From: Acidobacteriota bacterium
GTDB taxonomy: Bacteria; Acidobacteriota; Thermoanaerobaculia; Multivoradales; UBA5704
Assembly (NCBI GenBank): GCA_040005235.1
Contig: JBDTZG010000039.1
Coordinates: forward strand, 1 to 51,656
DNA length: 51,656 nt
Direction of reading: 5' to 3'
Shown: positions 3,282-10,655 of the stretch, piece by piece
Layout: each line of letters begins with the position of its first letter
Numbering within the stretch: the stretch's first letter is position 1
Notes under the pieces: model-generated
What the model was told of the DNA's origin: nothing
Seen by the model: the letters and a program-made list of their open reading frames with translations, nothing else
Database searches by the model: none
Translations under genes and position numbers: made by a program

Positions 3282-3394
3282 GACGAAGGGTTCCGGTTGA
3301 TCTGCGGCACTCGATCGCCCAACCTTATCGCTGCTCCCTTCCGGGCCTGACGAGGTTCGGTGAGGATCAATGCACAGGACCCGAACCCTTCGTC
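3282..3394 (-). ncRNA. ffs: Signal recognition particle 4.5S RNA
   Basis: Minus strand contains TCAGGCCCGGAAGGGAGCAGC (SRP helix 8) inside terminal stem GACGAAGGGTTC...GAACCCTTCGTC; directly upstream of dnaX. Confidence 0.93.
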
Positions 3395-3417
3395 GGTCCC
3401 TGCCGGAAAGAGAGGTG

Positions 3418-3447
3418 ATCCTATGTTCTCAGGCTGGACGCTGTAAA
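3418..3447 (-). promoter_or_regulatory. Putative sigma70 promoter of ffs-dnaX
   Basis: TTTACA-N18-TAGGAT on minus strand, about 23 nt before the ffs stem. Confidence 0.5.
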
Positions 3448-3902
3448 GGCGTGGTAGCGGCGAGGGTAGACCGCCGCCGGTCTTCTTGGCCGCGCTCCGG
3501 CGCGGGACCCACCCGCCGCTCGAAACGCACGGCGAGGCGCATCATTTCGCGCCGCTGCGCCAGGGCAAACTCGCAGAGCCGCCGGTCGGCCGGTTCGAGG
3601 GTCGCCCCTTGAGCGTCTTCCAGACCTTTCAGCCGGAGCGCCACCCGGGATAAATGCTCCTGAAGATGCCGCAGCTCGACCCCTGCGGCCCGAACCTCGG
3701 CGCGGACGACCGACTCGCCGAGGAGTTGCGGATCGGGCGGCGCTCCGGCCGCACTCACGAGCCCTTTGGTGACCCACTCGACGATTCGGAGAATGTGGGG
3801 AATTTGCCGGAGGCGGAGCATCACCGTCTCGCGCAACGGCCAGAGCCGGCTGTGCGCCGCCTTCTCCAGCTTTTCGACGTGCTTTTCGATCTTCTCGTTC
3901 AC
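3429..3902 (-). CDS. Hypothetical helical protein (157 aa)
   Basis: Fills gap, amphipathic helical composition; weak RBS, no recognised motif. Confidence 0.45.
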   Translation of the reverse strand: MNEKIEKHVEKLEKAAHSRLWPLRETVMLRLRQIPHILRIVEWVTKGLVSAAGAPPDPQLLGESVVRAEVRAAGVELRHLQEHLSRVALRLKGLEDAQGATLEPADRRLCEFALAQRREMMRLAVRFERRVGPAPERGQEDRRRSTLAATTPLQRPA

Positions 3903-4117
3903 GACGCCGCACTTTCAGCCCACGCGTTTCTTCGCGCAGCGCGGACCCGCCGCCGTTCGCGAATTAGATGGAGCAACGGGCCGGGTTCGATATAGGCCCG
4001 GCGCAGGATGGCGGCCCAGACGCGCAAGGAAACGTAGCCGCCCGGCGGTAGCGACGCTCCGGCCTCAGTGGCCGAATTGACGATCCGCCCGGCGAGCGCG
4101 GGAAGGCGGTCGGGGCA

Positions 4118-5020
4118 TTGCAAATAGAGGAGGCAACGTTGATCGAACGCACCCCCGGTTTCGCCACCTGGGCGCTGGTCGAAAAGCTGGCCCATCAGAG
4201 CGAAAAGGCTGCTGCGAGGGACGTTGAAGAAGCGCTCGCCCTTGGCGAGCTGGGCGTATGGACCGCCGATCGACTGCCCGACACCGCAGCATTTCAGGCG
4301 GAAGCCAGGGAGTACGCCTGGATCTACATCGGCAACGCCGGTCGCGTGAAGGGCTTGTTCGACGAGGCCTTTGCCGCGTTTGCCCGCGCCAAAGAGGTCG
4401 CTCCGCCGGAGGGGGAGGCGTTCAGCCCCTTCTCCCGTGCCCGCATGCTCGATCGCGAAGCGTCTCTTCACAGGGAGAAGAGGCAGTTTGTCACCGCACT
4501 CGATCTCCAGGACCGGGCTTTCGAAGTGGCACGCCCCGAAGAGCGGGGTTTTCTCTGGCTCAGTCGCGCGCTGCTCTTTCAACAGGACAACAATCCCGAG
4601 GGTGCGATCTCGGCACTCCAGAATGCGTGCGCGGCGTTGGACGAGCGGAGCGAGCCCCGCGACCGGTGGGGGGCGCTGTTCAGCCTCGGGGTGAACCTGG
4701 TCGAGCTCAACCGGGGCGGGGAAGCCGAGGCCCTTCTCCCGCAGATCCGTTCGCTCGCCGAGTTGCGACGGGATTCACTTGACCTCCTGCGCGTACTTTG
4801 GCTCGAAGGTAAGGCTGCACGCGCTCGATTCTCACCCCTTGGAAGACCGCAACGGTTTGGCGCGCGGGATCGAAGCCGCAACCGTTGTTCTGCACGAGCT
4901 GCTTTAGCGCACTGCTGCGTTGCCCGGCCGGATCGATCACGCACCGTTCCGGAGCCCAGAGTTGAGACAGGAATCCGAGCCAACTACCGAAGCGAAGGCT
5001 CACATCTTTTGGCGCGCTAA
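4118..5020 (+). pseudogene. Truncated TPR-like helical-repeat protein (paralog of the 5190-5821 C-terminal domain)
   Basis: FATWALVEKLAHQSEKAAARDVEEALALGELG...AWIYIGNAGRVKG...LDREASLHREKRQF...DLLRVLWLEGK; protein-like sequence is lost after ~4820; upstream in-frame ATG 3968 is interrupted by TAG 4049-4051. Confidence 0.6.
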
Positions 5021-5099
5021 ACACCGCCGAGGGAAGGGTGAGCTGGAGCGCATAGGCGAGCGCCACGGGAATGGCGAGACGGCGAAGAGGTGGCTTCAC
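4707..5099 (-). CDS. Small secreted peptide precursor with CxxDP(xG) repeats; 3' end uncertain/degenerate
   Basis: AAGGAGG RBS 6 nt before GTG; signal peptide MKPPLRRLAIPVALAYALQLTLPSAVFSA, amphipathic WLGFLSQLW, then CVIDPAG and NGCGFDPA. Confidence 0.6.
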   Translation of the reverse strand: MKPPLRRLAIPVALAYALQLTLPSAVFSAPKDVSLRFGSWLGFLSQLWAPERCVIDPAGQRSSALKQLVQNNGCGFDPARQTVAVFQGVRIERVQPYLRAKVRAGGQVNPVATRRANGSAGEGPRLPRPG

Positions 5100-5166
5100 G
5101 GCAATCCTCCTTGGGGATGTCGGCGCACCGGTAGACCCGGCGACCGGAGTGTCGCGGAAAGGAATT

Positions 5167-5180
5167 CCCGTTTAAACGGG
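5167..5180. promoter_or_regulatory. Perfect 14-bp palindrome, putative XRE operator
   Basis: CCCGTTTAAACGGG between the divergent peptide and XRE genes. Confidence 0.55.
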
Positions 5181-5189
5181 TGAAAGGCT

Positions 5190-5821
5190 ATGTCACGCTA
5201 CCCGAAAGGCAAGATACAGCCCGATCCGACGGTTTTGACGCTCCAGGGCGAGCCCGTCACCGAGGCGACGCTGGTGTTGATGCTTCGAGCGTCCCAAGGA
5301 ATGACGCAGGAAGAGTTTGGCCGGGCCGTGAAGATGCACCGGACGCAGATTTCGGCCTACGAAACGGGCGACAAGATCCCTCGCCCCAGCACCCTCGCCG
5401 GATGGCCGCCGCGTTGGGGACGACCGTCAAAGCGGTGGTCGAAGCGGCCGAATCCATTCGGCGACCGGCGGCGAACGGGATCAGCCCGTTGGATTCCGCC
5501 TGTGCCTCGGTGACCGGCGACCGGGTCCGAGAGATCGTGGAAGGCGCGCTCCTCCGGGTCGCCCTGGCCTTACAGCCTCGCGCCCGCTCGGCCGAGGAGC
5601 AACGCGTCGACGCCGAAGAGCTATGGCGCCGACTCTATGACCTCCCCAGGCACCAGCGCCTGGTTCTGGCCGAGCTCTCGCCGCCGTTTTGGAGCCCTGC
5701 GCTGGTCGAGCGGCTGGCCGAAGAAAGCAAGCGGGTGGCGCAGAGCGATCCAGACGAAGCGCACGCTCTCGCCGAGCTGGGCCTCCAAGTGGCAAAGCGG
5801 GCCGGTTCAGCCCACCGCTGA
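5190..5821 (+). pseudogene. XRE-family HTH regulator with helical/TPR-like C-terminus, frameshifted near 5399
   Basis: HTH LRASQGMTQEEFGRAVKMHRTQISAYETGDKIPRPSTLA continues in the -1 frame as RMAAALGTT...AEELWRRL...FWSPALVERLAEES; inserting one base restores a ~210-aa ORF. Confidence 0.75.
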
Positions 5822-6113
5822 TCTGGCCGGGACCACCACTGTTCCGGTCCAGATCACCACTGTTCCGGTCCAGATCACCACTGTTCTGGTCCAGGTCACC
5901 ACTGTTCTGGTCCAGGTCACCACTGTTCCGGTCCAGATCACCACTGTTCCGGTCCAGGTCACCACTGTTCCGGTCCAGGTCACCCCTGTTTTGTTCGGGG
6001 CCACCGCTGTTCCGGTCCAGATCACCACTGTTCTGGCCGGGACCACTGCTGGTCTGGATCACCTCACCGCCGTTCTCGGCGGGACCGCCGCCGTTCTCGT
6101 CCGGAACCGGACC
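5820..6113. repeat. Tandem 21-bp repeat array, ~14 units (consensus GTTCCGGTCCAGATCACCACT)
   Basis: Units start at 5820, 5841, 5862...6093 with exact 21-bp period; core units near-identical, distal units diverged. Confidence 0.95.
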
Positions 6114-6127
6114 GTCCGCGCGCGAGG

Positions 6128-6156
6128 TTTACGTGGCGTGGGACTTCGTCTATCAT
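6128..6156 (+). promoter_or_regulatory. Putative sigma70 promoter for tadA-tRNA-Ser
   Basis: TTTACG-N17-TATCAT. Confidence 0.55.
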
Positions 6157-6176
6157 CCCCCGCTCGTCAGCCGGTT

Positions 6177-6659
6177 GTGGAGGCGCTTTTGGAAGCTCCG
6201 TTCGCCGAAGTGGACAAGGCTTGGATGGAGCTGGCGCTGGCGGAGGCCCGTAGGGCCGAGGCGCTCGGCGAAGTTCCGATCGGCGCGGTGATCGTCCGCG
6301 GCGGCGAGGTGGTGGGGCGTGGTTACAATCGACGAGAGACCGACGGCGATCCTTTGGGCCACGCCGAGATCCTGGCGATTCGCGAGGCGGCAGAGCAGGT
6401 CGGCGGGTGGCGGCTGACGGGATGCACCCTCTACGTCACCCTCGAACCCTGCGCGATGTGCGCGGGGGCTCTGGTCGCGAGCCGCGTCGAGCGGTTGGTT
6501 TTCGGTGCTTCGGACCCGAAAGCCGGTTACTGCGGTAGTCTAGGCAATCTGGTTCAGGACGTTCGCTTGAACCATCGCCTCGAAGTGGTCGACGGCGTGC
6601 TGGGAGAGGAATGCGGGGACGTTCTCCGCCGATTCTTCGCCCGGCTGCGGGGCAAGTAG
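6177..6659 (+). CDS. tadA: tRNA adenosine(34) deaminase TadA
   Basis: GEVPIGAV, HAE, TLEPCAMC, FGASDPKAG; start GTG 6177 or ATG 6225. Confidence 0.93.
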   Translation: MEALLEAPFAEVDKAWMELALAEARRAEALGEVPIGAVIVRGGEVVGRGYNRRETDGDPLGHAEILAIREAAEQVGGWRLTGCTLYVTLEPCAMCAGALVASRVERLVFGASDPKAGYCGSLGNLVQDVRLNHRLEVVDGVLGEECGDVLRRFFARLRGK

Positions 6660-6677
6660 GGTTCTTTAAAAGCCGTG

Positions 6678-6767
6678 GGTGAGGTGTCCGAGTGGCTTAA
6701 GGAGCACGCTTGGAAAGCGTGTGTAGGGGAAACTCTACCGTGGGTTCGAATCCCACCCTCACCGCCA
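6678..6767 (+). tRNA. tRNA-Ser(GGA)
   Basis: Cloverleaf, anticodon arm CACGC-TTGGAAA-GCGTG, long variable arm, GTTCGAATC, encoded CCA. Confidence 0.97.
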
Positions 6768-10568: not shown

Positions 10569-10584
10569 TGTTTCACGTGAAACG
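10569..10584. promoter_or_regulatory. parS: parS site
   Basis: TGTTTCACGTGAAACG, 15/16 match to the canonical palindrome. Confidence 0.9.
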
Positions 10585-10639: not shown

Positions 10640-10655
10640 TGTTTCACGTGAAACA
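10640..10655. promoter_or_regulatory. parS: parS site
   Basis: Perfect TGTTTCACGTGAAACA upstream of rsmG-parA-parB. Confidence 0.95.

Follow-up and report, generated by a model that had tools for sequence, protein, structure and literature searches.

The DNA analysed here is a 51,656-nucleotide stretch (hereafter the window) from a bacterium of the phylum Acidobacteriota (assembly GCA_040005235.1, contig JBDTZG010000039.1), and one locus near its start raises the question of whether such bacteria carry peptide-signalling systems of the RRNPP kind. At this locus a small gene for a putatively exported repeat peptide lies between the remains of two genes for regulators of the XRE-type helix-turn-helix (HTH) and tetratricopeptide repeat (TPR) class, which we call RegA and RegB. 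The original prediction, made from the letters of the window, read this arrangement as a decayed copy of an undescribed peptide communication system, possibly one linked to ribosomally synthesized and post-translationally modified peptides (RiPPs). The window locus and its many relatives have the anatomy of RRNPP-type cassettes, in a phylum without described ones. Arguing from architecture and linkage, we consider the chances about even that such a cassette is a self-contained peptide-signal/receptor switch analogous to RRNPP.

The decayed cassette of the window

The window contains a 2.7-kb accessory island with a decayed three-gene cassette, laid out as follows.

3452-6125: accessory island, with junctions at ~3451/3452 and 6125/6126 from alignment with the empty site of the congener G007
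4052-4840, forward strand: RegA remnant (pseudogene), the middle part of an XRE-HTH and TPR regulator
4850-5099, reverse strand: remnant of the gene for the putatively exported repeat peptide; the open reading frame (ORF) extends to 4707 without homology
5105-5112, reverse strand: Shine-Dalgarno sequence AAGGAGGA, 5 nt upstream of the peptide start, read from the sequence
5167-5180: perfect 14-bp palindrome CCCGTTTAAACGGG, between the peptide gene and RegB
5190-5821, forward strand: RegB, the second XRE-HTH regulator, frameshifted by 1 nt near 5399 and ending at a tandem repeat

The layout of HTH and TPR regulators, exported peptide and operator described in the original prediction is present in the window. 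The XRE gene (RegB) is divergent from the peptide gene, with the palindrome between them, and a TPR-like ORF at 4118-5020 on the forward strand, whose TPR matches are weak, converges with it. The segment said to be common to the two window regulators was recovered at 46% and 45% identity (E 3.6e-4 and 3e-4).

The decay was also read correctly: RegA has lost both ends, the peptide its closing cysteines and tail, and RegB is frameshifted. Window RegA aligns only to positions 147-377 of a 484-position RegA profile (E 8e-86), lacking the HTH and linker and the last ~105 residues. An in-frame TAG (4046-4048) stands ahead of it, no HTH-like sequence lies upstream of that codon, and at the other end homology stops after LWLEGKAA and the frame continues open. 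The peptide ORF (5099-4707, reverse strand) opens with a GTG start and encodes a basic and hydrophobic, signal-peptide-like N-terminus followed by WLGFLSQLW, CVIDPAG and NGCGFDPA, with homology to its paralogs confined to residues 1-83. Paralog peptide genes have GGAG-type sites at the position equivalent to AAGGAGGA. In RegB, the frame of 5190 encodes the HTH_3 domain (E 7e-10) and the frame of 5180 encodes what follows, up to the stop at 5821; the two pieces align to profile positions 9-47 and 43-195.

The lesions were placed individually by aligning the window with G003, a sister species that shares 87% DNA identity over window positions 4866-6700. The G003 peptide ortholog is an intact 107-residue precursor with three closed loops, and the HTH of its RegB is encoded in a single frame across the window's frameshift point. 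Relative to this ortholog, loop 1 of the window peptide carries G->R and closing Cys->R replacements, loop 2 has indels immediately past its D-P codons, and loop 3 is missing. In both DNA alignments of the window with the ortholog, homology fades just past those D-P codons. The degenerate third copy, NRCGL, that had been proposed did not hold up: its codons are present in another frame, but the two alignments place NRCGL differently. The G003 RegA is damaged in a different way, with only the last ~110 profile positions left.

Contigs of 1699 nt from each of two Logan runs, which are possibly both sources of the window DNA and are not independent species samples, covered 4165-5863 with zero differences. 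Since these independently assembled contigs are identical, the lesions are not assembly slips in the metagenome-assembled genome (MAG). Of the sequencing runs listed for window positions 3300-6700, none is an RNA run. The window copy of the cassette is dead, pseudogenised and out of use.

A family of peptides with TPR partners

Intact relatives of the window peptide are common. The genome to which the window belongs (G000, a Thermoanaerobaculia MAG of 6.2 Mb in 140 contigs, completeness 100%) contains 14 clear paralogs of the small ORF, and a profile of the 15 peptides recovered those 15 at E <= 2e-23, plus 20 weaker ORFs. An intact precursor has ~100 residues and comprises a Sec-type signal peptide (assigned by eye from n-, h- and c-regions), an amphipathic W..FLSxLW helix, and two to five tandem nine-residue loops of the form C-x-h-D-P-x-G-x-C, separated by Ala/Pro-rich linkers. 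The paralogs have 2-4 units of the form G-C-x-x-D-P-x-G-x-C, the final unit ends 2-4 residues short of the stop codon, and 3 of the 15 peptides have the same units without cysteines (IGLEADPNGRP).

We surveyed loops in database proteins with a pattern that fixed C1, G7 and C9 and allowed D/E/N/S at position 4 and P/G/S/T at position 5. Among the 249 loops found, in 87 of 120 proteins, position 4 was always D and position 5 always P. Of the CxxDPxG motif that had been put forward as a candidate mature signal, D-P-x-G is thus conserved in 249/249 loops, but the family motif is really the whole closed loop. Among near-orthologs the leader is almost invariant, and loop positions 2, 3, 6 and 8 vary, as does the number of units. 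Identity at the variable positions was 0.46 within precursors versus 0.32 between them.

The profile matched 31 of the 41 genomes of the order (G000 included), consisting of G000, all 24 other genomes of the same family (3-45 matches each) and 6 of 16 from other families of the order. When 300 other Acidobacteriota genomes, drawn from throughout the phylum, were scanned at E <= 1e-4 and limited to 16 scored candidates each, none matched. In a collection of 5.8 billion proteins there were 192 profile matches; all source names shown read 'hypothetical protein', and wherever an organism was given it was Thermoanaerobaculia. Similarly, close RegA relatives were found in public contigs titled as Thermoanaerobaculia or Holophagales MAGs. 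The suggestion that the system is undescribed is upheld by these searches: the peptides matched no Pfam or NCBIfam model, their ESM Atlas matches were unnamed Acidobacteriota clusters only (score 0.89-0.90), and a full-text literature search found no paper on such cassettes or on RRNPP-like signalling in Acidobacteria.

High-GC DNA yields many long spurious ORFs, and GC content at third codon positions (GC3) is low in the window peptide ORF (0.62), as might be expected if these were chance frames and not real genes. However, GC3 is 0.70-0.87 in the 14 paralogs, synteny is conserved, and relatives are present both in the database and in every sampled genome of the taxonomic family, which refutes the idea for the peptide family as a whole.

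The linkage between peptide and regulators, also part of the original prediction, was consistent across genomes. The window TPR ORF had 34 matching places in G000, the best of them within open frames of ~500 residues (58-64% identical; 64%, 61% and 58% for full-length paralogs), and a full-length-regulator profile matched 72 ORFs there. Each of the 15 strong peptide genes has a regulator ORF on either side, in the order RegA forward, peptide reverse, RegB forward, so that G000 has 14 further cassettes with the window's layout. At 11 peptide-seeded loci from 11 other genomes, RegA was present in 11/11 and RegB in 10/11. Five public contigs found from the three closest RegA paralogs, and thus seeded with a regulator, contained the peptide in 5/5 cases and RegB in 4/5, the fifth contig stopping at its end.

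Intact RegA proteins have ~480-500 residues, with an N-terminal HTH_3 or HTH_31 domain and TPR repeats in the C-terminal 300 residues, and none of the 14 RegA proteins has an apolar stretch of 20 residues. Among nine regulators scanned, HTH_3/HTH_31 was found in all nine and TPR in eight; the ninth is a RegB with two HTH domains and no TPR match. RegB proteins are either full length or terminate after the linker or the first TPR. In a tree of the N-terminal 200 residues (omitting C76_B and C137_B, whose ORFs were wrongly called, the pseudogene C85_B and the window fragments), one branch (support 97/99) parts 14 RegA from 11 RegB, and the same cassette pairings recur in the two clades. The unit of two regulators is thus an old one that is duplicated as a whole, and by its sequence RegB is an anciently diverged, often shortened paralog of RegA.

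A second type of cassette joins the peptides to TPR proteins with a different N-terminus. Most of the weaker peptide-profile matches (14 of 20) adjoin TPR proteins without an HTH, mostly just upstream and on the same strand, and G000 has 14 pairs of a cysteine-free DPxG repeat peptide and a protein with a zinc motif and TPRs. These zinc-motif/TPR proteins align to RegA profile positions ~120-476. An N-terminal H-x3/4-C-x2-C motif was present in 19/19 of them versus 0/27 type-I regulators, with the spacing H-x4-C-x2-C in 17 of the 19; the Pfam family zf-HC2 gave sub-threshold scores only, in 2 of 14. Genes with Sigma70_r2, of the extracytoplasmic function (ECF) sigma factor type, lie directly upstream of a zinc-motif/TPR gene at one locus only, C103. 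Because the same TPR domain stands beside the peptide whether the output is an HTH or a zinc motif, the constant pair is peptide plus TPR domain. That the peptide travels with this domain whatever the output is the best argument, albeit an indirect one, for an interaction between them.

We note two further observations on this second type. Locus C103 (G000 C103:11796-16838, L038:2797-7839), which reads ECF sigma, zinc-motif/TPR, second ECF sigma, Cys-free peptide and second zinc-motif/TPR gene, is the clearest sigma-linked cassette in G000. At loci L065, L066, L068 and L069 of G000, several zinc-motif/TPR genes fall below the GC3 of 0.72 that most genes pass, and their composition may be atypical.

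The spacer between peptide gene and RegB holds the candidate operator. Perfect 14-nt palindromes are not scarce in the window (11 versus ~6 in shuffles), but the 6.2-Mb genome has just two copies of CCCGTTTAAACGGG, or even of its 10-nt core, and both are in peptide-RegB spacers, those of the window and of the C76 cassette. At up to two mismatches there were 13 copies versus ~21 expected from composition; four were in cassettes of the same subfamily, with near-copies in the C127 spacer and ~120 nt upstream of the C76 RegA. Other cassettes have their own AT-centred palindromes at the equivalent place, such as ACCCAAAATTTTGGGT. The window palindrome stops 9 nt ahead of the RegB start codon and probably overlaps the RegB promoter, and CCCGTTTAAACGGG is probably the operator on which the cassette's HTH regulators act. 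Another perfect 14-nt palindrome, GTTTCACGTGAAAC, has two copies in the window (10570-10583 and 10641-10654, 71 nt apart), possibly the paired operator of an unrelated regulator.

Cassette turnover and neighbouring genes

Cassettes differ between closely related genomes at one chromosomal site. We searched window positions 3300-6700 in seven other genomes of the genus. In four of them (G001, G004, G005 and G007) the site is empty, with the left flank running to ~3451, tadA starting from ~6222, and the flanks 85-169 nt apart. The right junction lies just upstream of a promoter-like tadA site (6128-6156), and tadA and two tRNA-Ser genes follow downstream of the island. G003 has an orthologous island, G002 a cassette from a different subfamily whose two regulators are full length, and G006 a cassette of a cysteine-free subfamily within a 19-kb insert that also contains two giant surface proteins. 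The one site thus holds three cassette subfamilies (G000/G003, G002 and G006). Separately, RegB of G006 (L076, G006:C21 17307-18853) is split over two overlapping frames matching profile positions 10-158 and 145-476, which looks like another independent RegB frameshift.

Two further features border the window cassette.

3429-3902, reverse strand: S157, a gene for 157 residues of an unnamed family, carried by the island and divergent from RegA
5800-6105: 21-bp tandem repeat array (BLAST extent; Tandem Repeats Finder gave 5834-6033, period 21, 9.5 copies)

S157 matched no Pfam family. Six ORFs of its family were matched in G000, four of them divergently upstream of a RegA, and an ortholog is present in G003. 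A separate idea, that S157 is a free-standing piece of RegA, was rejected (hhalign probability 0.2). The 21-bp repeat family has 14 arrays in G000, found with a real repeat stretch as query at looser settings; a query of four consensus units matched the window array only. Four arrays are directly beside RegA-family ORFs and seven are at contig ends, so the 21-bp arrays break assembly; they include G000 C4:2-372, C10:25041-25444, C18:147064-147434 and C137:4051-4180. Many more arrays occur in all seven congeners.

This pattern could be produced by a mobile or selfish accessory module, acting in exclusion, addiction or kin discrimination and spread by recombination, whose regulators are its own repressors. 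The site by tadA is empty or occupied by different subfamilies, copies decay independently, repeat arrays lie at cassette borders, and the cassettes are flanked by housekeeping or miscellaneous genes with no relation to them (SpoVG, MraZ, RecX, CysS, glucokinase, PhoU and others). However, neither the islands of G006 and G002 nor the surroundings of 25 loci in G000 contained an integrase or transposase, and no toxin-like gene was found in the islands examined. We judge this reading quite unlikely; it explains movement and not function, and is compatible with a peptide-signal/receptor switch.

The neighbouring genes also bear on how the peptide might be matured. With a leader and two to five tandem cores, the peptide could be a multi-core RiPP precursor matured by enzymes encoded elsewhere, its production controlled by the regulators. 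We called 68 neighbouring ORFs at the 25 loci by a crude GC3 filter that possibly missed some genes, and 0/68 had a maturase, exporter or immunity-like domain at E<=1e-5, with radical-SAM, YcaO, lanthipeptide and C39/ABC export domains among those looked for. Additionally, precursors that are modified in the cytoplasm do not usually carry a Sec-type signal peptide. We give the RiPP reading very little credence, and the RiPP-linked alternative in the original prediction fares no better.

A more serious rival is a plain regulator-target module, in which the peptide, merely under the control of RegA and RegB, is exported as an antimicrobial, competitor-directed, adhesive or metal-binding effector and the ligand of the TPR domain is something else. 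The near-orthologs, with conserved leaders and loop positions hypervariable on a fixed Cys frame, are what such an effector might show, as are the gain and loss of accessory cassettes between congeners and the giant surface proteins adjoining the G006 cassette. Conversely, the same 68 ORFs include no immunity, export or processing gene, many family members have no cysteine at all, and the peptide stays beside the same TPR domain whether its output is an HTH or a zinc motif. On balance we regard this rival as somewhat unlikely.

Peptide sensing and comparison with known systems

We next consider how a peptide-signal/receptor switch might work. Under this proposal, the precursor would be exported and cut into loop peptides, and these, or a linear DPxG core, would re-enter the cytoplasm and bind on the concave side of RegA's TPR domain. 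Occupancy would alter what RegA and RegB do at the palindromic operator, and hence at the peptide-RegB promoter pair. Each cassette would then be a private autoinducing peptide channel, RRNPP-like in its working.

Structural modelling is consistent with the sensing step. In a model of RegA (pLDDT 85), the HTH is followed by a linker helix of 45 residues and then by a TPR superhelix, and for the TPR part VIA-align gave Z scores of 22.5 with LGN-peptide, 21.5 with RapJ-PhrC, 20.8 with NprR and 19.9 with NprR-NprX. Across Foldseek and VIA-align, LGN, Rap and NprR scored within about two Z units of each other, effectively tied, and the Rap and NprR alignments spanned ~290 residues. The RegA domain therefore models as a peptide-binding type of superhelix, in agreement with the TPR groove implied by the original prediction. 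A co-fold of the RegA TPR domain of the C8 cassette (residues 140-489) with its cognate propeptide (30-101), run without controls, scored 0.11 against a mark of 0.32 and speaks neither for nor against binding. A possible import route is the single SBP_bac_5 gene of G000, of the OppA family (C8:64502-65602, E 4.7e-89). It lies ~3.7 kb from an intact cassette (C8:57982-60791), which may be coincidence.

Several points weigh against peptide signalling. Linkage and co-duplication would be expected of any regulator-target pair, and the 68 neighbouring ORFs include no transporter or protease gene linked to the cassettes. The TPR match is generic, as LGN ties with Rap and NprR and helical repeats score high Z values regardless. 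A profile built from 15 RegA sequences gave 142 matches in a search of PDB sequences; the best 60 were generic TPR or XRE proteins and included no RRNPP receptor (Rap, NprR, PlcR, Rgg, PrgX or AimR). A disulfide-closed loop would become reduced in the cytoplasm, and a diderm cell needs routes across its outer membrane. Loops within a precursor are non-identical, so one 'code' per cassette is not evident. Finally, a hypervariable core on a fixed cysteine frame would fit secreted toxins too.

A broader version of peptide-signal/receptor switching, which we hold tentatively and with some doubt, is that one diderm family of soil Acidobacteria runs dozens of orthogonal peptide channels per cell. 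These would combine exported D-P-x-G loops, cytoplasmic TPR sensors and XRE or anti-sigma-like zinc outputs, in cassettes swapped between species at chromosomal hot spots, and would represent either an independent invention or a very distant RRNPP relative outside Bacillota.

Two papers frame RRNPP as specific to Bacillota (PMC10075063, PMC9765709). A large, conserved and rapidly turning-over RRNPP-like family in an outer-membrane-bearing soil phylum would widen this Bacillota-centred picture, would raise the question of peptide passage across two membranes, and would supply many naturally orthogonal sets of peptide, regulator and operator. The window itself contributes a map of the decay, lesion by lesion, a site that is empty or holds different cassettes in different congeners, an operator word that is rare genome-wide, and the ancient RegA/RegB split. 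Together, its decayed copy, the intact peptide of the sister ortholog and the four empty sites form a natural series for dating gain and loss.

Among known systems, PatS/PatX-HetR of filamentous cyanobacteria resembles the proposed switch in its diderm host, with a short gene-encoded peptide acting on a cytoplasmic DNA-binding protein. HetR, unlike RegA, does not belong to the TPR proteins; PatS works from cell to cell within one filament, and there are no multi-copy cassettes. The second cassette type recalls ECF sigma factors with zinc-binding anti-sigma (ZAS) proteins, through its N-terminal His/Cys motif and the Sigma70_r2 genes upstream at C103. The ZAS motif is H-x3-C-x2-C, whereas 17 of the 19 proteins here have H-x4-C-x2-C, and a sigma gene occurs at one locus only.

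Two papers on conjugation of the Bacillus subtilis plasmid pLS20 describe an XRE-type repressor (Rco), a peptide-responsive TPR protein (Rap) and a peptide gene (Phr*) (PMC7641744, PMC7430634). The acidobacterial cassettes have three comparable parts. However, the pLS20 TPR protein is an HTH-less anti-repressor, whereas RegA and RegB are both HTH-bearing paralogs, and we infer that the short form of RegB may be a partner or competitor of RegA.

The closest likeness is to RRNPP(A) systems themselves (PlcR-PapR, NprR-NprX, Rgg-SHP, PrgX and AimR-AimP, as well as Rap-Phr, whose receptor lacks an HTH). In both, a soluble receptor, here a predicted one, combines an XRE-type HTH at its N-terminus with a TPR superhelix at its C-terminus, and the gene for a small exported propeptide adjoins the receptor gene in divergent or convergent orientation. 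Also common to both are a palindromic box in the shared promoter region and many paralogous cassettes per genome. Some RRNPP propeptides, too, carry pheromone units in tandem repeats (PMC11343458). Compared with RRNPP(A), the acidobacterial cassettes belong to a diderm phylum, show no sequence homology to RRNPP receptors among the best 60 PDB matches of the RegA profile, and have two paralogous regulators each. Their RegA has an extra ~90-residue linker that includes the 45-residue helix, and each of their precursors carries up to five peptide units, which are loops of nine residues closed by Cys and invariant at D-P-x-G.

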